From Candidatus Latescibacterota bacterium (lineage in GTDB: Bacteria > Krumholzibacteriota > Krumholzibacteriia > WVZY01 > JAKEHA01): a stretch of DNA of 64,000 nucleotides. Shown in pieces: positions 7,787 to 58,560 of this stretch; within the stretch, counting starts at the first letter, position 1; every line of letters begins with the position of its first letter. The notes under the pieces are model-generated. The model saw nothing but the letters and a program-made list of their open reading frames with translations. It was not told the origin of the DNA and did no database searches. The position numbers and the translations under genes are program-made. Location of the stretch: the NCBI GenBank assembly GCA_963736125.1, contig CAVTNQ010000005.1, positions 192,218-256,217 of the forward strand. The letters are read 5' to 3'.

Positions 7787-8515
7787 ATGAACGACGTCGC
7801 GCCACGACTTCTGTTGTTGAGCAACTCGCGTAACTTCGGCGGCGGGTATATGGAGCACGCCGAACCGTGGATTCGCGCCTTCTTCGCGGGGACGAAGCGG
7901 GCGGCGTTCGTCCCCTACGCGGGGGTTACACTGGATTGGGACGAGTATGCGGGCATGGTCAGGGAGAGGTTCGGGCCGATGGGGATCGAGGTCCAGTCCG
8001 TGCATCGCATCAAACACCCCGTCCAGGAGATCGAATCGGCGGACGCCGTCTTGGTCGGCGGAGGGAACACGTTCCACTTGTTGAAGCACCTGTACGACAC
8101 CGGGTTATTGTGGGCGATTCGGTCGCGCGTCCGGGCGGGGGTGCCGTATATGGGTTGGAGCGCGGGCTCCAACGTTGCATGCCCTACCATCAAGACGACC
8201 AACGACATGCCGGTCGTGGAGCCGGCGCGGTTGGACGCGATGCGCCTGGTTCCCTTCCAAGTAAATCCACATTATACCGATGTCACTCTTCCCAACCACG
8301 GCGGAGAGACGCGCGCCCAGCGCCTGGCCGAGTTCACGAAATCCAATCCCGGTGTTTATGTCGTAGGGTTGCGTGAAGGCAGCGCTGTGGAAGTCTCGAA
8401 CGGAACGACGAAGCTCTTGGGACCGCACAGCGCCCGGATATTCTTCGGAAGTCGAGAACCCGTGGAGTGCGCGCCGAGCGAGTCGATGGAGTTTCTATGG
8501 AACGTAACAACGTGA
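7787..8515 (+). CDS. pepE: Peptidase E (S51 family dipeptidase).
   Basis: [13 protein letters not shown]...[14 protein letters not shown]...PFQVNPHY are typical S51 motifs. Confidence 0.85.
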
Positions 8516-9828
8516 AGCAGGGGGCGCTTCAAACCGTGGAAGCCGTGACGCCCCGGCGTGCGCCCGCGGGTTTGCACTTCTTCGGGTGCGCCGTCGCGCT
8601 GACGGCGCTCGCGTGCCTCGCGGCGACGAACGCATTCGCGCAGGCGCCGCCGGCAGCAGCGGCGTCGAACGTGGATATGATCCAGACGGTCACCAGTGAA
8701 TCTTCGCGCGCGTCGCTTTTGGAGCTCTACACGTCGGAAGGCTGCTCGAGCTGCCCGCCCGCCGAGGCCTGGCTTTCGAAGCTCCCCACCGATGCCCGTT
8801 TGTGGAAGGACGTCGTGCCGGTGGCGTTCCACGTCGACTATTGGGACTACTTGGGATGGGTCGACGTCTTCGCGCGTCCCGAATACAGCGAGCGACAGCG
8901 CGATTACGGAATGGCGTGGAAGGCGGAAACCATCTATACGCCGGCCTTCGTCGCCAACGGATCCGAATGGTCCGGGTGGAGAGATGGAAAACCGTGGCCC
9001 GCTGCGACTGCGGCGCAAGGCGGCAAACTCATATTCGACGTTCTTGCGGGATCAACGGTTGTTCGATTTCAGCCGAGCAGCGGAACCAAGCTGCACGGGA
9101 AGCCAGTGGCCTACGTTGCGATACTGGGAATGGGGATGTCGCGCAAGATCACGGCCGGTGAGAACGAAGGCACAACGCAAACGCACGACTTCGTCGCCAT
9201 GGACTTGCAACGAATCGCTCTCGGCGAAATGGGCGACGCATGGGTCGGCCAGGGAACCTGGCAAATCGTGAAAGCCGCCAATCCGTTGCGCTACGCGGTG
9301 GCCGTTTGGGTGGCGGATGACAGCCGCGTGCCGCTTCAAGTTGCCGGCGACTGGCTCAACACCGAGGCAGCGGCGGCACTCAAAGTGACACTAGAAAGGA
9401 ATGATTCCATGTCGAAGATCACCAAGAGCGACGCAGAATGGAAAGCGATTCTCTCTCCCGACGCCTATCGCGTGGCGCGCGAAAAAGGAACCGAAGCCGC
9501 GTTCACGGGTGCCTACTGGAACAACCACGATAAGGGGATGTACGTCTGCAGTTCGTGCGGACAGCCGTTGTTCTCGTCGGACACCAAGTTCGACTCGGGC
9601 ACCGGGTGGCCCAGCTTCTACGAGCCGGTCGACAACAAGAACGTCGAGGTCGAGGGCGACCAAAGCCACGGCATGCGGCGTACGGAAGTGCTTTGCAGCC
9701 GGTGCGCGGCGCACCTGGGCCACGTGTTCGACGACGGTCCCAAGCCGACCGGACTCCGCTATTGCATCAACTCGGTATCGCTGAAGTTCGTCCCCAAGGA
9801 CGTTAAGGACGACAAGTCGAAGAAGTAG
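8467..9828 (+). CDS. msrB: Secreted DUF1223 thioredoxin-like domain fused to methionine-R-sulfoxide reductase MsrB.
   Basis: The N-terminal part carries a signal peptide and [15 protein letters not shown] (the DUF1223 CxxC). The C-terminal part is SelR/MsrB: [19 protein letters not shown]...[16 protein letters not shown] (zinc CxxC x2 plus the catalytic Cys). There is no stop between the two parts. The start could alternatively be the internal Met at 8497. Confidence 0.75.
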
Positions 9829-9972: not shown

Positions 9973-10746
9973 ATGAATCTCGCCGCCGCCTTGGAAGCGC
10001 TTGGTCTCGCCCACATCGAGGCGCTCTCCTACACCCATCTCGTAGGCCATCCGTCGACGAGCGGCTATCGCGTCGCGCGCGGAATCGGCAAACCCACCGC
10101 CAACGTGTATCGCGCACTCGAAACGCTCGAGCGAAAAGGTCTCGTCGTTCGGGATCGTGGAACGCCGCCGGCTTATCGCGCGCTACCCCCCGACGAAATG
10201 CTGGAGCGACTCGAGCGCGAGTTCATGGAGCGAAAGGCGCGCGCAGCGCAAGAGCTTGCTGCTCTCAAGCCCGGTGTGGACGACGAGAAACTCTACGCGC
10301 TCAAGTCGCACGACCACGTAATTGCGCGGGCGCATCTGTTGCTCGCGGCGTCGCGTCGCATCGTGCTGCTGGAAGCACCGCATGCATCGGTCGCACGGCT
10401 GACGGCTGCCGTCCACGACGCGCGCGCTCGAGGCGTGCGCGTCGTCATTGTTACCGACGAAGCAGTCGCGCACGCGGACACCATCGTCGAGGCGAGGCGA
10501 CCGATTGGGTCGATCCGCATGGTGGCCGACGCGCGCGAGTCGCTCCTATCCGCACTGCCCAACGACGCCGGCGGCGTGCGCGAAGCGATCTGGACGCGCA
10601 GCGCGCTCTTGGGGCGTATGCTGCACGACGCGCTGGCGTCGGAACTCTTCTACGTATTGGTCGAGCGTGCGCTGGACGACGGCGTCAGCGTCGATGAAGT
10701 GGAAGCGGCGTTCGAGAGGTGCAAGACGGCGCGCGAGAGTCTGTGA
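9973..10746 (+). CDS. TrmB-family transcriptional regulator.
   Basis: The N-terminal wHTH GYRVARGIGKPTANVYRALETLERKGLV is typical of the TrmB N-terminal domain. Confidence 0.6.
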   Translation: MNLAAALEALGLAHIEALSYTHLVGHPSTSGYRVARGIGKPTANVYRALETLERKGLVVRDRGTPPAYRALPPDEMLERLEREFMERKARAAQELAALKPGVDDEKLYALKSHDHVIARAHLLLAASRRIVLLEAPHASVARLTAAVHDARARGVRVVIVTDEAVAHADTIVEARRPIGSIRMVADARESLLSALPNDAGGVREAIWTRSALLGRMLHDALASELFYVLVERALDDGVSVDEVEAAFERCKTARESL

Positions 10747-10767: not shown

Positions 10768-11520
10768 CTAGCGTCGCGGAGTTGCAGTCATCGCGAACTC
10801 GTCGACGGAGGCACGCGCCGGCGTGCGTCGCAGCCGACAGGCGACCGACGTCCCGCTGTGAACGCGCCCGTCGTCGCGAACGGTCCAAAGATCCTGCGCG
10901 GCGTCGAACTCGCACGTGATGCCCGACGACGAGAGCCAGAACGCCTCGGTGCTGCGTGCGAGTAAGATCAAGCGCGCCGCCGGCGGATCCATCGATCGAG
11001 CGCGCGCGCGACGCGCGAGCTCTTCGGCCGCGTCGCGCGGGGTGCCCAATCGAAGCTTCTCAGCCAGAACGGCGAAAATGCCGCGGCCGTCGTCGGTCAC
11101 GATGAGGTCGATTTGGCGCGCGGTCGTCGCGAGCTCGAAGGAGATCCACGATGCCCCCGCGTGCACGATCGCATTTTCGACGAGTTCCCTGAAGGTTCCC
11201 CGGCACGTGTCGATCACGACCGCCCGATCCCCCAAGAGGATCGGCGTCGCGTGCTCGGCCCACACCCGGGCGGCGTTCAGCACGGGTGTCACGCGAAACT
11301 CGCGCGAAAGCGTCGACATGCGCCTGAGCGCATACTCCCGCGCGCGAGTTTGGCCGGCCTGGTCGAGTACTCCGGCGTAGACGAGAGAGTCGAGGTGTCG
11401 GTTTGCGGCCTGTCGGGAAATCCCGTATGCTTGCGCGACTCGGCGGGCGATACCCTTGGGATCGTCATCGACGTGGTCCACGATGAAGCCTTGGATCGAA
11501 CGGGTACGGGTGCGCTCCAC
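10768..11520 (-). CDS. HTH domain fused to a GHKL (HATPase_c, RsbW-like) ATPase. A regulator or Ser-kinase-like protein.
   Basis: GTG start. The HTH is GIARRVAQAYGISRQAANRHLDSL. The N-box is ELVENAIVHAG and the G1-box is VTDDGRGI. Confidence 0.65.
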   Translation of the reverse strand: MERTRTRSIQGFIVDHVDDDPKGIARRVAQAYGISRQAANRHLDSLVYAGVLDQAGQTRAREYALRRMSTLSREFRVTPVLNAARVWAEHATPILLGDRAVVIDTCRGTFRELVENAIVHAGASWISFELATTARQIDLIVTDDGRGIFAVLAEKLRLGTPRDAAEELARRARARSMDPPAARLILLARSTEAFWLSSSGITCEFDAAQDLWTVRDDGRVHSGTSVACRLRRTPARASVDEFAMTATPRR

Positions 11521-11548
11521 GAAATTCCGTTTAGAGTCAGACCGCCGA

Positions 11549-11672
11549 CATTGTCAACAAGTTTTGGGTCGATGAGGATGCGGCATCCAAGTCTTTGTCA
11601 ACATTGGGCCACGTTTATTGTCAACAATTCTAAGCCGGCATTGTCAACATTATGACAGCACAGATTGTCAAC
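11549..11672. repeat. Array of five direct repeats [A/T]TTGTCAAC[A/T] (consensus ATTGTCAACA) in the divergent promoter region.
   Basis: Copies start at approximately 11551, 11595, 11619, 11641 and 11665, with spacings of 44, 24, 22 and 24 bp. The complement of each copy contains TTGACA. Confidence 0.8.
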
Positions 11673-11711
11673 TTTATTCCAGAAGACCATTCTTTATAAG
11701 AGATTGCAGAA

Positions 11712-12560
11712 ATGAGAAGCCTTCGCGAATTTCTCCAGACCATCCGGGTCGAGCACACCATCTTCGCACTTCCCTTCGCCTACGCCACCCTATTCCTTGC
11801 GGAGCGCGGCTGGCCCACGGCTTGGAACGCGCTCTGGATCACCGTCGCGATGGTGGCCGGCCGGACGGTCGGGATGGCAGCCAACCGGGTGATCGACGCC
11901 GAGGTGGATGCCAAGAACCCGCGGACAGCGTCGCGGTCGATTCCTGCCGGGCGCTTGCGCCTTTCGCGGGCGATCACCTTCACGCTTGTCGCCCTCGCCG
12001 TATTCGTGGTCGCCGTGTGGCAGCTCGATCCGATCTGTCGAAAGCTGTGGCCGGTCGTCGTCGTCGCGATGGTGGCCTACCCGTACGCGAAGCGCGTGAC
12101 ACCGTTCGCCCACCTCGTCCTGGGCGTCGTCTACTTCATGGTGCCGACGTCGGTGTGGCTCGCGGTGACCGGAGAGCTTTCGACGGCGTCCGTGCTCCTC
12201 GGCGTCGGAGCTGCGTTGTGGGTGGCCGGCTTCGACATCATCTATGCGTGCCAGGACGTCGACGTCGACCGACGCGAGGGACTGCACTCGATTCCCGCCG
12301 ACTTCGGCGTTGCCCGAGGTCTCGCGGTTGCACATGGACTCCATCTCACCTTCGTGGCGTGCCTATTCATGGCCGGTTCGATCCTATCGGCCGGACGTTG
12401 GTACTATGTCGGAGTCTTGTTGACCACGATACTCCTCATCCATGAGCACCGGCTCGTCAAACCCAACGACCTTTCGAAAGTGAACGCAGCCTTCTTCACC
12501 ACCAACGGAATCGTGAGCATCGCGCTCTTCGCGTTGATCGCGCTGGATACGGTGGTGTAA
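11712..12560 (+). CDS. UbiA-family aromatic prenyltransferase. A candidate menaquinone (futalosine late-step) prenyltransferase.
   Basis: 282 aa with 8-9 TM helices. NRVIDAEVDAKNPRT and DIIYACQDVDVDRREG are the Asp-rich UbiA motifs. It forms an operon with ubiX. Confidence 0.85.
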   Translation: MRSLREFLQTIRVEHTIFALPFAYATLFLAERGWPTAWNALWITVAMVAGRTVGMAANRVIDAEVDAKNPRTASRSIPAGRLRLSRAITFTLVALAVFVVAVWQLDPICRKLWPVVVVAMVAYPYAKRVTPFAHLVLGVVYFMVPTSVWLAVTGELSTASVLLGVGAALWVAGFDIIYACQDVDVDRREGLHSIPADFGVARGLAVAHGLHLTFVACLFMAGSILSAGRWYYVGVLLTTILLIHEHRLVKPNDLSKVNAAFFTTNGIVSIALFALIALDTVV

Positions 12561-12562
12561 CG

Positions 12563-13204
12563 ATGTCCGTCTACGCGGTGGGAATTACGGGAGGGAGTGG
12601 AGCGCCGTACGCTCTACGACTGCTAAACGCGCTCGTCTCGTCGGGACACGACGCGCACGTCGTCATTTCGTCGGCAGGGGAGAAGGTGCTGCAGCTCGAG
12701 AGCGGGCTGAAACTGGGTCGCACGCTGCACGAAAAAGAAGAAGCGCTGACGCGCGCGCTCGAACTCGTCGGCGAAAGAAGGGGATCGCTGCGTCTCTTCG
12801 ACCCCACGAATCTCGCCGCCCCGATTTCCAGCGGGTCGTTTCCGTGCGCGGGGATGGTGATCGTGCCGTGCTCGACGGGAACGCTGGGGCGCGTCGCCAA
12901 CGGCATTTCGTCGAACCTGATCGAACGCGCCGCCGACGTCGCCCTCAAGGAGCGACGACGTCTCGTCGTCGTCCCGCGCGAGACACCGCTCTCCGAGATC
13001 CATTTGCGCAACATGCTGGCACTTCGACAAGCCGGCGCCGACATCCTGCCCGCCATGCCCGCGTTCTACCACCGTCCGCGCACCATCGCGGATATGGTCG
13101 ACATGATCGTCGGCCGCATCCTCGATCGACTCGGCGTCGAAAACTCGCTCTTCTTCCGATGGGGAAAAGACACGGCGGCGAGCGACGTCGACATGAACGA
13201 CTAG
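12563..13204 (+). CDS. ubiX: Flavin prenyltransferase UbiX.
   Basis: VGITGGSGAPYALRLL...MVIVPCSTGTLGRVANG is typical of UbiX/Pad1. It starts 3 bp after the ubiA stop. Confidence 0.9.
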   Translation: MSVYAVGITGGSGAPYALRLLNALVSSGHDAHVVISSAGEKVLQLESGLKLGRTLHEKEEALTRALELVGERRGSLRLFDPTNLAAPISSGSFPCAGMVIVPCSTGTLGRVANGISSNLIERAADVALKERRRLVVVPRETPLSEIHLRNMLALRQAGADILPAMPAFYHRPRTIADMVDMIVGRILDRLGVENSLFFRWGKDTAASDVDMND

Positions 13205-13275: not shown

Positions 13276-13830
13276 CTACAGGCTCCAGGCCAGGCCCGCA
13301 CGAAGCGACCAGTTCTTCACGTCGTTGGTGTCGTCGCTGATGACGTTGTACCAACCGGACGCGATGGCGCTCATGCTCTCGTTCATGCCGACTTTGACGC
13401 CGGCGCCACCCTGGTACCCGAACTTCGTGTCGCTGTTGCTCTCGAAGCCGGTCTGTTCCGAGTTCACCATGTTGGCCGAGATGCCACCCGCGATGAACGG
13501 CTGGAAGCGGACCGACGCGGTCGGGATCGTGAACTTGACGTTCGCGCCGATCGAGACGTCGCGCAGTGACACGTCGCTGGTCGGATCCACTGCCGTGGTC
13601 GACGACCAATAGTTCGCGAACGGGCTAATCTGGAAGTTCGCCATGGGCAAACCGAAATCCATGAAAACGCCCGCCATCCACGTGCTGTTTGGGTTGAAGC
13701 TGGGAGCGTTGCTCACGCTCGGGCTTACGTAGCCGGCTTCGAAGCCGACCGAACGAATCGGGCTGGCCGCGAACGCGTTCGCCGAAACGAACACGCAGCA
13801 GACTGCGAGAATCAAAAAGAGCTTCTTCAT
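13276..13830 (-). CDS. Small outer-membrane beta-barrel protein (OmpW/OmpA-like barrel).
   Basis: Start MKKLFLILAVCCVFVSANAFA (signal peptide). Alternating amphipathic strands run to the C-terminus GLAWSL. Confidence 0.65.
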   Translation of the reverse strand: MKKLFLILAVCCVFVSANAFAASPIRSVGFEAGYVSPSVSNAPSFNPNSTWMAGVFMDFGLPMANFQISPFANYWSSTTAVDPTSDVSLRDVSIGANVKFTIPTASVRFQPFIAGGISANMVNSEQTGFESNSDTKFGYQGGAGVKVGMNESMSAIASGWYNVISDDTNDVKNWSLRAGLAWSL

Positions 13831-14103
13831 TCGAGAAAACCTCCCTCGATGGGTCCCGGCGGAACTTCTTGAGGTGCCACTCGGCACCACCCACCGCGCG
13901 GGGTTCCCTCCACTGGTTTTAAGTGACCGGGATCACATTGCAAACCTGAGGCCAGACCCGGCCGCGTGGCGTGCCCGGAGCCCGCAACCATCATGGGGAA
14001 GCATCGGTTACAGGCGGATCGAACGGGCCCGGATGGGCCCTTGGGTACGGGCTGGGGTGGTGTCGCATTGTGCGGCGGGCGGAAGGGAGCTACAGTGACC
14101 CCC

Positions 14104-15915
14104 ATGTCTTTCCGCGACCTCCGGTCTTTTCTCGCCGATCTCGAAGCGATCGGGCAGTTGAAGCGCGTCCGCGTCGAAATCGATCCGCGCTTCGAAGTCG
14201 CGGAGATCGCCCAGCGCGTCGTCCGCGAAGAGGGACCGGCGCTCCTCTTCGAGCGCGTCAAGGGCTCGCGATTCCCGATCGCGATCAACTTCTTCGGGAG
14301 CTTCGCGCGTATCGAGCGCGCGATCGGGATGCACCCGGAGGAGCTGGGCGCGCGGTTGGTTCGATTCGCGGAGGAGTTGAATCCTCCCAGCCTCGGCCGG
14401 CTCGCGGCCGCCAGCGACTTTCTCCCGCGCCTGCTCGCATTTCGACCCGCGCGCGCGGCGCGCGGTGCCAGCCAGGCGGTCGTGGAAGGGAACCCCGACC
14501 TCGACGCCTTGCCGATCATCACCTGCTGGCCGCAAGACGGCGGTCGCTTCATCACGTTCCCGCTTGTGTTCACGCGCCACCCGCGCACGGGGAAGTCGAA
14601 TGTCGGCATTTATCGCATGCAGGTGTTCGACGGCACGTCGACCGGCATGCACTGGCAAATCCACAAAGGCGGCGGGTTCCACTATCGCGAAGCGGAGATG
14701 GCGGGGCACGCGTTGCCGGTGTCGGTGGCTCTCGGCGCCGACCCCGCGCTCATGCTGGCCGGCATCTTCCCGCTTCCCGAAGCACTCGAAGAAATCGCCT
14801 TCGCGGGCATTCTCGCCGCGCGCCGCACACGCCTCGCGCGCGCGCGATCGATCGACCTCGACGTCTTGGCCGACGCGGAGTTTGTAATAGAAGGAGAAGT
14901 GCGACCGCGCGAGCGTCACCCCGAAGGTCCCTTCGGCGATCACTTCGGACACTACTGCGACGTGGCGGACTTTCCCGTGTTCCGTGTCAAGACCATCACG
15001 CGCCGCGCCAACGCCATCTACCCGGCTGCGGTGGTAGGGAAGCCGCCGCAGGAAGATCGCTACATGGGCGATGCGTCGCAGATGATCTTGGGGCCGCTGA
15101 TTCGGCTGATTCGTCCCGAAGTGCGCGACGTGTGGGCCTACTACGAAGCCGGCTTCCACAACTTGCTGGTCGCGTCCGTCGAGGCGCGTTACACGCGCGA
15201 GCCCATTCGCACCGCGATGGGGCTCTTGGGCGAAGGACAGCTCGGGTTGAGCAAGGTGCTGGTCTTGGTCGACCGTAACGTCGACGCGCGGCGTTTCCGC
15301 AACGTGCTGCGCGCGATTCGCGACCACTTCGACCCGCGCGAGAATTTCCACCTCATCTCGCGCGCACCGCTCGACACGCTCGATTTCACCAGTTTCAAGA
15401 TGCATCTGGGCAGTCGCATGATCCTCGATGCGACGGGCAGCCGCGCGCAGTACTCGGGCGGGTCGCCCGCCGCGCACGACGCCGAGGCGCCACACGCGCA
15501 CGCCGCACCGCTTGCGCACGACCCGCGCGAGATGGCGCCGCACGTCAAGGCGTGGCGCGTGTGGGAGGACACCATGCTGGTGGTGCAGGTCGACCGCGTC
15601 GAGCGCGACATCGGGCGTCGTGTGCTGGAACCGCTGGTCAAGGCGCGCGGGACGGCGCACTTGAAGATCGTCGCGGTGGTGAGCCCCGACGTGAATCTCG
15701 ACGACGACGTCGACACGCTGTGGGGAATCTTCACGCGCTTCGACCCCGCGCGCGACCTCATGTTCACCGAGTCGTCGATGCAAGGTGTCCAGCCGCTGTA
15801 CGCCGGTGTGATGGGCATCGACGCCACCTGGAAGCCCGGTTACCCCGACGCCGTCGCCATGGACCCTGAGGTGGTCCGGCGCGTCGACGCGGGCTGGAAC
15901 GACTACTGGGAGTGA
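14104..15915 (+). CDS. UbiD-family (prFMN-dependent) decarboxylase.
   Basis: MSFRDLRSFLADLEAIGQL is the UbiD N-terminal signature. Also present are IITCWPQDGG, GIYRMQV, and HKGGG. The ORF-track start at 13966 is probably too far upstream. The protein has a C-terminal extension beyond a typical UbiD length. Confidence 0.85.
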   Translation: MSFRDLRSFLADLEAIGQLKRVRVEIDPRFEVAEIAQRVVREEGPALLFERVKGSRFPIAINFFGSFARIERAIGMHPEELGARLVRFAEELNPPSLGRLAAASDFLPRLLAFRPARAARGASQAVVEGNPDLDALPIITCWPQDGGRFITFPLVFTRHPRTGKSNVGIYRMQVFDGTSTGMHWQIHKGGGFHYREAEMAGHALPVSVALGADPALMLAGIFPLPEALEEIAFAGILAARRTRLARARSIDLDVLADAEFVIEGEVRPRERHPEGPFGDHFGHYCDVADFPVFRVKTITRRANAIYPAAVVGKPPQEDRYMGDASQMILGPLIRLIRPEVRDVWAYYEAGFHNLLVASVEARYTREPIRTAMGLLGEGQLGLSKVLVLVDRNVDARRFRNVLRAIRDHFDPRENFHLISRAPLDTLDFTSFKMHLGSRMILDATGSRAQYSGGSPAAHDAEAPHAHAAPLAHDPREMAPHVKAWRVWEDTMLVVQVDRVERDIGRRVLEPLVKARGTAHLKIVAVVSPDVNLDDDVDTLWGIFTRFDPARDLMFTESSMQGVQPLYAGVMGIDATWKPGYPDAVAMDPEVVRRVDAGWNDYWE

Positions 15916-16109: not shown

Positions 16110-16454
16110 ATGAATTCGAAACTGTATGTCGGTAACCTGAACTACCAGACGACCGAAGAGCAGCTGCGTCAGTTGTTCTCCGAGGTAGCTCCCGTGACCT
16201 CCGTCGCTCTGATCACCGATCGCGAAACCGGCCGCCCGAAGGGCTTCGGCTTCGTCGAGATGGAGACAAGCGAAGGCGCCCGCGAGGCGATCGAGAAGCT
16301 GAACAACCGCGAGGTTGACCAGCGCACGATCACCGTCAGCGAAGCGCGTCCCAAGAAGGAGTTCGGCGGTGGCCGTGGTGGCGACGGCGGCGGCTTCGGC
16401 GGCGGCGGTCGTGGCGGTTACGGCGGTGGCGGCGGCGGACGTCGTCGTTACTAA
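16110..16454 (+). CDS. RRM-domain RNA-binding protein with a glycine-rich tail.
   Basis: RNP2 is LYVGNL and RNP1 is KGFGFVEM. The C-terminus is GGGRGGDGGGFGGGGRGGYGGGGGG. Confidence 0.9.
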   Translation: MNSKLYVGNLNYQTTEEQLRQLFSEVAPVTSVALITDRETGRPKGFGFVEMETSEGAREAIEKLNNREVDQRTITVSEARPKKEFGGGRGGDGGGFGGGGRGGYGGGGGGRRRY

Positions 16455-56604: not shown

Positions 56605-58560
56605 CGAAGCCTCGCTTGCAGTATCAACGTCATGTCGAACGACGCCCCCGCGGGATGATAGCGCACGTCGGCGTCGAACAGGTTGCGCGCGATCACGTCG
56701 ACCCACAAGCGCTGGCGCCACATGCCGTGCTGTACCATCGCGTCGACGAAGGTCGCAGCACCGACCTGTTCGTGGTAGGTGGCGTTGTCGCCGCACGCGA
56801 CCCCGTCGACGCCGGCGTAGTCGGTCCACAAGGTCGCGGAATAGTGGCACAGGCGCGCCCACAGCGACCACGTCGGGCTCGGTCGGGCCCACACCGTGTA
56901 GCGAAGGCGGTGGCGCGGGACGGTCTGCCACGTCGTGCCGAGCGCGGGGTCGGAGTCGAACTCCTCCACGTAGGTCCACGAGAAATCTCCGCCCGAGTGA
57001 TCGCCGAGCGCGTGATAGAGCCGCGCTTCGACGACACCGACGTTGCCGGACTGCCCGGTGACGATGCGCGTCGGCGAGGCGAAGGTGCACGTCGCGGCGT
57101 CGTAGGTGAACGCGCGCGACTCGACGTAGGCGTCGTCGAAGCGGCGCCACCCGACGTTGAGCGACGCCCCGCCCAAGACACCGCTCGACGACCAGCCCGC
57201 GTCGGCGGACGAGACGCGCGTGCGCGTCACGGGGCCGTCGATCGAATAGGAGACGCCCTGACGCGCGAGCAGGCCGTAACCGCGTTCCGACCACAACCAC
57301 AGGTCGTTGTTTTCGGTGAACAAGCGTTCCTGCACCGCGACGCGCACCCACACGGTGTCGGCCGGGCGCACCACCCAGTGCACGCGCGCGGCGGCGGCGT
57401 TGGCGTCGTTGTCGCCGTCCGACGTGGTCGCGAGTTCGAGATCGGCGCTGCTCGAACGTCCGAGCGCTCGCTCGACGCGCACACCGGCGCGCACGAAGGT
57501 GTCTTCTTTGGTGGTGAGTGCGTCGATTGTTTCGACGCTGCGATTCTCGACGTTTGCGAACGCGACGGCACTCGTGCGGCCGAAGTCGTGGGTCACATCG
57601 ACGCCGCCCTCGAGTCGCCGCGTCGACCATTCGTAGTCGAAGGCGAGCGCGTCCTCTTGGTCGGTCAAGTCCTCGCTCGACGCGAGCGCGCGGTAATCGA
57701 TACGCGTGCGCGCACCGGTCGCGAACGAGCCGGTGACGCCGCCGAGCAGCATGCGCTGGTCGGTGGGGACTTCGCTGCCGAAGGGTTCGGAATAGTGGAA
57801 GTAGCGACGGGCGTCCGCCACGGCGGCGATGGCTTCGTGCCAGCCGCCGCCGGCGCGAATGCCCACGCGCGCGCTGGACGACAGTCGCAATACGGCCGGC
57901 CACGCCGGGTCGTAGAACCCCGACGACGACGGCTCGGTCGCACCGGGACGCAGCGTCGAGAGCGCGTCGGAGGTTTGCTCGCGCATCGCGGGGTCGGTGT
58001 AGGGGTGCTGCATCATCGCTCCCGAGAACGACGCGTACCAATTGCGCGCACCGCGCGCAATCCATATCGACGCGTCGGGGCCGATGGCATCGGGCGCATC
58101 GTCGCCGATCTCGTCCGCCGCCGCTCGCGGTCGCAGCGGTCGTCCACCCGGGTGCGGCGCGCGCGGCGTAAATCTCGATGCGCGCACTCGACGATTCCCA
58201 CGCGGCGCCCGCGCTCGATTGGTCGACGTCGTCGACGAAGACGATGGAGTCGACTTCGGCGATCGACACCGGCACCAATTCGAGATGGGTGGCGTCGAAC
58301 ACGGTGACGTCGAGCAGCTGGCCGTTCAGCACCACCGACCAGTTGGTGGCGCGCGGTTGCGTGAGGGCGCGTGCCGTCGGCATCCACGTATAGCCGTCGT
58401 TGGAGGCGGGCGCCCACGCGTCGACGAGCTGCATCGCGTCGGAGAGTCGCGTGACCGCGGCCGCTTCGAGCTGCGCGCGCGTCAGGACGACGCGACGCGC
58501 GAGCGCGACGTTGGCGTGTACAAGGAGTGTGACGGCGAATGCCGCGACGAGAGCGCGCAT
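56592..58560 (-). pseudogene. Putative large outer-membrane protein split by a frameshift in a (CG)n tract.
   Basis: An N-terminal 139-aa segment with a signal peptide (MRALVAAFAVTLLVHANVALA) is in one frame. The remaining 531 aa are in another. The junction is at tacGCCGCGCGCGCCGCaccc near 58150. Confidence 0.45.

Follow-up and report, generated by a model that had tools for sequence, protein, structure and literature searches.

Autoregulators of the ArsR/SmtB and MarR families carry an N-terminal winged helix-turn-helix (HTH) and act as dimers on operators of one or two inverted repeats that overlap −35 and −10 elements, their genes being divergent from the presumed target and their effector module being a metal or ligand site within the HTH dimer. 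SpoIIAB and RsbW, by contrast, are anti-sigma factor kinases of partner-switching modules with STAS-domain antagonists; the proteins of these modules are separate, sequester a sigma factor and do not themselves bind DNA. Direct repeats characterize two further systems: plasmid iterons, such as those of RepA, RepE and pi, occur as three to six copies with a period of ~21–22 bp, next to a winged-HTH gene and with autoregulatory overlap, and OmpR/PhoB boxes are phased direct repeats that lie on one helix face, overlap the −35 region, have an 11-bp unit and are occupied by tandem receiver-domain dimers.

Here we describe a repeat array, and the regulator gene next to it, in a 64-kb stretch of DNA that was analysed as a whole and is called the window throughout. 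Like the ArsR/SmtB and MarR autoregulators, the regulator begins with a winged HTH whose recognition helix is ArsR-like, its gene is divergent from the presumed target, and the putative sites overlap −35/−10-like elements; unlike theirs, its candidate sites are three to six direct rather than inverted repeats, with an 8–9-bp core at two-turn spacing, and a SpoIIAB-like GHKL fold is predicted where they have the metal or ligand site. In the structure model the C-terminal domain superimposes best on SpoIIAB and RsbW, and the long forms of the family share with these modules a HATPase_c_2 match, a STAS-like DUF4325 domain and conserved N-box and G1-box residues. However, the kinase-like and STAS-like parts are here fused to a DNA-binding domain, and the short form encoded in the window has lost both the STAS-like domain and a glycine-rich segment. 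The likeness to plasmid iterons is one of analogy, in repeat geometry, in the adjacent winged-HTH gene and in sites that would overlap its own promoter, whereas replication context and Rep domains are missing, only the 8–9-bp core rather than the whole unit is conserved, and loci of the regulator family occur in contigs of up to 3.2 Mb. With OmpR/PhoB boxes the array shares phased direct repeats on one helix face over a −35 region, but it has two-turn spacing in place of an 11-bp unit, and a one-component regulator. In function the element would resemble the operator of a divergent winged-HTH autoregulator, and in geometry it is like plasmid iterons, but it is a member of neither class; the regulator–operator pair would combine an unusual effector module with an operator built from promoter hexamers. 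A literature search found no description of the HTH-GHKL(-DUF4325) family, its architecture or its motif.

A phased direct-repeat array between a regulator gene and ubiA

The array occupies a 191-bp gap between the GTG start codon of the gene for a 250-aa protein (11520, − strand) and the ATG of ubiA (11712, + strand). Within 123 bp it holds five exact copies of TTGTCAAC, all on the + strand and starting at 11551, 11595, 11618, 11641 and 11665, and the 64-kb window contains no further copy on either strand outside 11551–11672. The expected count was 1.12, and none of 100 dinucleotide-preserving shuffles of the window yielded five or more copies. Each copy is part of a 10-mer WTTGTCAACW (starts at 11550, 11594, 11617, 11640 and 11664), with start-to-start spacings of 44, 23, 23 and 24 bp, and reads GTTGACAAT on the regulator strand. 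GC content across the array is 0.37–0.44, as against ~0.63 for the window.

These data agree with a preliminary description, made from the sequence alone, of five repeats in a divergent promoter region, phased as in protein-binding arrays, spaced by 22–24 and 44 bp (essentially the measured values) and reading GTTGACAAT on the complementary strand; as to position, the region was right and the start, given as 11549, was not, since the first 10-mer begins one base rightward at 11550. The same description had named dispersal as a REP-like element as grounds for abandoning its reading. No dispersal was seen, and we discarded the REP-like alternative, there being no outside copy in 64 kb and the five copies sharing one intergenic gap in each of three related loci (L001–L003). 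A riboswitch or small RNA is likewise unsupported, a search of the whole window against Rfam at gathering thresholds having returned no RNA family. Between copies 1 and 2, a hairpin (GGATGCGGCATCC, 11576–11588) followed by a T-rich stretch gave a weak terminator-scan match; neither L001 nor L081 shares it. A 16-bp palindrome (TGTCAacattaTGACA, 11642–11657), formed by copy 4 with its spacer, resembles a CRP/FNR-type site, a candidate that was dropped because the palindrome is missing from the other copies and from relatives.

Table 1. Features of the array and its flanking genes (positions in the window).
Feature	Position	Strand	Remarks
TrmB-like regulator gene	9973..10746	+	Convergent with the regulator gene
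Regulator gene, short form	10768..11520	-	250 aa; winged HTH and SpoIIAB/RsbW-like GHKL domain
−10-like hexamer CTAAAC, putative regulator promoter	11529..11534	-	GCGTTTAG kept in window, L001 and L081
Repeat copy 1	11550..11558	+	ATTGTCAAC; GTTGACAAT on regulator strand; exact match
Repeat copy 2	11594..11602	+	TTTGTCAAC; 44 bp from copy 1
Repeat copy 3	11617..11625	+	ATTGTCAAC; kept in L001–L003 and L081–L083
Repeat copy 4	11640..11648	+	ATTGTCAAC; putative −35-like TTGTCA of ubiA promoter
Repeat copy 5	11664..11672	+	ATTGTCAAC; overlaps putative −10-like GATTGT (11663–11668) of ubiA promoter
UbiA/MqnP-like prenyltransferase gene	11712..12560	+	Pfam E 9.5e-51; TIGR01475 above cutoff
UbiX-family flavin prenyltransferase gene	12563..13204	+	E 1.1e-44
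Outer-membrane beta-barrel gene (OMP_b-brl)	13276-13890	-	Between ubiX and ubiD
UbiD-family (menaquinone-type) decarboxylase gene	14101..15915	+	E 1.5e-75

Gene order around the array

Profile matches confirmed the identities first proposed for UbiA, UbiX and UbiD (Table 1), the UbiD protein scoring 490.5 bits against mena_SCO4490, slightly below the cutoff of 495.9. The divergent operon begins with ubiA, the presumed regulated target, and ubiX, which starts 3 bp past ubiA, is presumably co-transcribed with it. The insertion of an opposite-strand outer-membrane protein (OMP) gene between ubiX and ubiD also occurs in three related loci (L081–L083), and this conserved gene probably places ubiD outside the ubiA–ubiX transcript. 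On the other side of the regulator gene, the TrmB-like neighbour is conserved in the Krumholzibacteria clade only and is absent beside the array-carrying long-form homologues described below.

The array is conserved in Krumholzibacteria-type relatives

The closest relatives of UbiA were found in Krumholzibacteria-type metagenome-assembled genomes (MAGs), all related sequences being metagenomic, and the array is conserved, with diverged spacers, in all eight Krumholzibacteria-type loci. Three of these (L001, L002 and L003, with UbiA identities of 82%, 71% and 67%) each have five copies of TTGTCAAC, oriented as in the window and likewise located between ubiA and the regulator gene; in a fourth UbiA relative (L004, 63%) the upstream gene is a different one, and both regulator and array are missing. 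Loci of regulator homologues (L081–L084; 67%, 55%, 53% and 40% identity) show the gene order UbiD, OMP, UbiX, UbiA, divergent regulator and convergent TrmB-like gene, and their arrays consist of ATTGTCAAC or ATTGTCAAT units, with five copies in the same orientation in each of L081, L082 and L083, and three plus degenerate ones in L084. Presence of the array in L001–L003 and L081–L084 thus bears out the conservation in related genomes on which the preliminary description had made its reading depend.

Across the eight loci the heptamer TTGACAA is kept in 38 of 38 units, and the unit consensus on the regulator strand is nAnGTTGACAAT. Inner spacings are 22–23 bp, the last spacing (copy 4 to copy 5) is 24–25 bp in seven of the eight, and the gap between copies 1 and 2 is 33, 44, 45 or 55 bp, values near multiples of 11. 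In an ungapped comparison, which covers the window and L081 only, L001 having been left out because one spacing differs by 1 bp, motif columns were 98% identical and the other intergenic columns 41%. The motif is conserved amid diverging non-coding sequence, as is expected of an operator.

Domain organization of the regulator

By Pfam alone, the 250-aa regulator gave a HATPase_c match below the cutoff (E 3.6e-4). Its homologues gave winged-HTH matches (HTH_20, HTH_24, MarR_2 and HTH_5, weak in Pfam) followed by HATPase_c_2, and an AlphaFold2 model of the regulator, built with 66 family sequences, was confident (pLDDT 90.7, pTM 0.82). The top three Foldseek matches to this model, all with E <1e-3, were SpoIIAB chains (1til, 1l0o and 1th8), with weaker matches to further SpoIIAB/RsbW chains (1tid_A, 1tid_C and 6m37, the last being RsbW), and target TM-scores for the SpoIIAB/RsbW matches were 0.55–0.68. 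The earlier assignment as an HTH-GHKL protein, weak by Pfam alone, was in this way confirmed through the homologues and the model, according to which the C-terminal domain is a SpoIIAB/RsbW-like GHKL domain with the Bergerat fold.

The regulator is a short form without the STAS-like DUF4325 domain. It conserves N116 and H120 of the N box and D143, G145 and G147 of the G1 box, and has PPAARLIL in place of the HTGEGIFF of long forms, so that the set of nucleotide-binding motifs is incomplete. With both the glycine-rich HTGEGIFF segment and the STAS-like domain lost, the short form may no longer bind nucleotide. The recognition helix, ISRQAxNxHL or more fully ISRQA(V/A)NxHL, does not vary between the window protein and even the most distant family members, short and long forms having in common the residues that are R36, Q37, A38, N40 and H42 in the window regulator, and this invariance matches that of the TTGACAAT core in the DNA.

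Sequence searches of the PDB gave weak matches to histidine-kinase GHKL domains only, no curated NCBIfam family covers the regulator, and PADLOC gave only marginal, HTH-level matches. Moreover, tblastn matched a long form (L193) to none of 72,556 plasmids and none of 50,697 phage records, and a scan of viral contigs with the family alignment found no regulator relatives; a plasmid, phage or defence origin of the family was rejected on these results.

The array accompanies the regulator family

A metagenome scan for three TTGTCAA spaced 21–26 bp apart returned at least 120 stretches. Thirteen among the matches listed had diverged spacers and a distant regulator homologue (23–33% identity; hmmsearch E 1e-17 to 3e-45) adjoining the array in the same relative orientation, with no adjacent ubiA and with far-side genes that differ in every locus. 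Ten of these 13 genes are complete and encode long forms of 333–367 aa, the other three running off the contig end, and the long forms that were scanned with Pfam have an extra C-terminal STAS-like DUF4325 domain. Most other stretches were true tandem repeats (minisatellites) with near-identical spacers, unrelated to the array. Such TTGTCAA minisatellites, with a 20–26-bp period and many of low GC, were seen in >100 unrelated contigs among L087–L206, and their abundance makes the bare pattern unspecific unless the spacers are required to differ.

Because the 13 loci had been selected by motif, the test was repeated with loci chosen by protein similarity only. Homologues from two long-form subfamilies (P0142, P0171, P0215, P0186 and P0135; then P0308, P0323 and P0350) gave eight loci, at 58–100% identity to their queries (L207–L211, L214/215, L216 and L217), all of which (8/8) have two to four TTGACAA(T) units at 21–22 bp abutting the start codon. 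Overall, the distant homologues (333–370 aa, with winged HTH, SpoIIAB/RsbW-like GHKL and STAS-like DUF4325 domains) have two to six TTGACAAT repeats spaced by 21–22 bp directly before their own start codon, and they come from Acidobacteria- and Betaproteobacteria-labelled MAGs, where their neighbours are unrelated. The array goes with the regulator gene family and not with ubiA or the menaquinone genes, since L004 lacks both regulator and array, and the distant homologues keep the array beside unrelated neighbours. The link is strict across several lineages, the array being found in 8/8 Krumholzibacteria-clade and 8/8 long-form loci and absent where the gene is absent (L004). The preliminary description had framed the array in terms of menaquinone genes: the adjacency holds in the window, but the array tracks the regulator family instead.

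This family is large: clustering at 50% identity gives at least 3,723 clusters with E ≤ 1e-3, 1,499 of them with E ≤ 1e-10, and clustering at 90% identity gives >8,000. The only source labels that its members have are DUF4325/STAS-like domain protein and anti-sigma regulatory factor. The family can thereby be paired with a precise DNA motif, TTGACAAT at 21–22 bp.

Several observations concern individual long-form loci. The promoter-proximal units of L209 (2974–2980) and L211 (2973–2979 and 2994–3000) read TTGTCAA and not TTGACAA on the gene strand; being in phase with the others (21–22 bp), they suggest either that the centre base of TTGNCAA is flexible or that units can flip. The called start of the family gene in L217 (2501) lies inside the array (2490–2538), with the conserved N-terminus ~65 nt downstream, so that the publicly called gene probably extends too far; several stop-to-stop open reading frames of L106 and L119 show a like pattern. 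Long-form genes lie beside GmrSD_N and AbiJ in L211–L213 (4173–6850) and beside a TacA-acetyltransferase pair and HipA in L210 (4113–7041), a proximity to defence and toxin–antitoxin genes that may point to variable genome islands as the home of part of the family.

Promoter-like geometry on both strands

On the regulator strand, all eight Krumholzibacteria-type loci show the same layout, in which the TTGACA of copy 1 is followed after 17 nt by a TAnAnn-type hexamer (CTAAAC, TAGACG, ATAAAC, TAGAAA, CTACAA or TTACAA) and, 6–12 nt further on, by the start codon. Copy 1 would thus provide the −35 element of the regulator's own promoter, which is where the preliminary description had placed it, and the short distance between the −10-like hexamer and the start codon suggests a leaderless or nearly leaderless regulator mRNA. 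In L084, which still has a long form, the −10 position lies within a one-mismatch repeat (TTTACAA) located 22 bp from copy 1, and the −10 element of the window clade therefore looks like, and probably is, a decayed sixth repeat.

On the ubiA strand, six of the eight loci have the TTGTCA of copy 4, which matches the −35 consensus at five of six bases, 16–17 nt and then nATTGT of copy 5; the misfits are L003, with a last spacing of 14 bp, and L084, with a 14-nt spacer. In the relatives only 14–39 nt separate the end of the last repeat from the ubiA ATG, a distance that obliges the ubiA promoter to overlap the repeats. Among long-form loci, the 21–22-bp period puts a GACAAT 17–18 nt after the TTGACA of the preceding unit, and several of these loci have their start codon 6–8 nt past the GACAAT of the final unit, which fits the last two repeats serving as −35 and −10 of a leaderless transcript. 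The layouts were read by eye and by script, and the proposed −10 elements are weak, matching at 3–4 of 6 bases. A scan of 11300–11900 with a consensus that may not be that of the host phylum found no sigma-70 promoter.

This geometry raises the question of whether the repeats could be RNA-polymerase promoter elements only, that is, −35 and −10 hexamers stacked into sigma-70-type promoters, tandem or bidirectional, with no dedicated regulator. We regard this as unlikely. The TTGACA of each unit is indeed the exact −35 consensus, at 21–22 bp the GACAAT of the next unit, 17–18 nt downstream, retains A2 and T6 of a −10 element, and the position of several long-form start codons just past the last unit suits a promoter as well. 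Nonetheless, base-for-base conservation between distant lineages is not a property of ordinary promoters, nor do these come as three to six phased copies; the 22–24-bp spacings of the window clade would give spacers of 18–20 nt on the regulator strand, which are too long, and yet the copies are still perfect; the in-phase TTGTCAA units of L209 and L211 weaken the −10 likeness while retaining the TTGNCAA core; and the co-occurrence of the array is specific to a single HTH family, in which the recognition helix does not vary. Some of the motif conservation could, however, reflect a promoter rather than an operator role.

A probable operator for the HTH-GHKL regulator

We consider it likely that the divergent winged-HTH/GHKL regulator has its cognate operators in these five repeats and that in this locus it probably also controls the late menaquinone-synthesis genes. 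A somewhat smaller likelihood than that given to promoter elements alone attaches to recognition of the repeats by a different protein, either the TrmB-like neighbour or a global regulator, with the HTH-GHKL gene merely one of its targets. The TrmB-like gene is the conserved convergent neighbour in every Krumholzibacteria-clade locus and could contribute, but long-form loci keep the array without TrmB or any other shared neighbour, and the one gene that always accompanies the array is that for HTH-GHKL(-DUF4325).

The preliminary description had also offered a cluster of DnaA boxes as an alternative, with a switch in GC skew as its test. Within the repeats TTGTCAACA differs at one position from TTGTCCACA, the DnaA box of high-GC type, the array region is locally AT-rich, and a 21–22-bp periodicity with winged-HTH binders recalls plasmid iterons. 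The register is nevertheless wrong: the conserved stretch is A/T-TTGTCAA-C/T followed by a variable base, position 6 of the units being always A and the base after AAC varying among the eight loci, so that the ACA end of the DnaA box is not conserved. Neither strand of the 64-kb window matches TTATCCACA, TTWTNCACA or TTGTCCACA; a six-frame regular-expression search of the window for DnaA hallmark peptide motifs, a weak test, found none; and cumulative GC skew, computed over these 64 kb only, drifts upward, its trend showing no lasting change at 11.6 kb. The neighbours of the array are a regulator gene and quinone genes rather than origin genes, and the adjacent protein has HTH and GHKL domains, not those of a Rep initiator. 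Since the same array also precedes homologous regulator genes at many unrelated chromosomal sites, and L193 and the family scan of viral contigs gave the null results reported above, a replication origin, a DnaA-titrating site or plasmid-type replication iterons were rejected here as very improbable.

Under the operator reading, one HTH would dock on each GTTGACAAT unit, with the units aligned on one helix face 22–24 bp (about two turns) apart and the distal unit 33–55 bp away in steps of ~11 bp. We infer from their positions that occupied units would mask, at copy 1, the regulator's own −35 element and, at copies 4 and 5, the ubiA promoter, and hence would shut off both the regulator promoter and the mqnP(ubiA)–ubiX operon, combining autoregulation with operon control, until the regulator is released by a signal sensed through its GHKL-like domain. 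Given the operator reading, repression and activation appear about equally probable. The regulator and its array offer a concrete candidate for transcriptional control of late futalosine-pathway genes (mqnP/ubiA and ubiX) in an uncultured phylum. Moreover, a single 8-bp word would act as operator, as −35 and as −10-like element, and on both strands, which is relevant to promoter and operator engineering.

A more speculative extension, to which we assign a low probability, is that the family forms a new class of DNA-tethered partner-switching regulators, in which the winged HTH would anchor a SpoIIAB-like domain on an operator built from −35 and −10 elements. The ancestral long form would then unite an anti-sigma/kinase domain with a STAS-like antagonist, and its operator would be composed of −35 (TTGACA) and −10-like (GACAAT) hexamers with a 21-bp periodicity. 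At its own leaderless promoter, such a protein might compete with the housekeeping sigma factor, capture it or hand it over, and the trimmed version in Krumholzibacteria might have been taken on as a switch for late menaquinone (futalosine-pathway) genes.

Other features of the window

Upstream of the regulator gene, the 3′ end of the TrmB-like gene contains a 21-bp tandem repeat (10691–10738; 2.3 copies, 78% matches). The gene at 8467–9828 (+ strand) encodes DUF1223 fused to a SelR/MsrB methionine-sulfoxide reductase domain and is preceded by a peptidase S51 gene, and both are kept upstream of the TrmB-like gene in L081–L083. Past ubiD, a CGG-rich repeat at 16361–16442, with a 33-bp period and a 3-bp inner period, probably encodes a Gly/Arg-rich low-complexity stretch. 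The sole tRNA gene of the window, for tRNA-Ala(GGC), lies at 57845–57933 (− strand) and is unusually long, with 89 nt according to ARAGORN.
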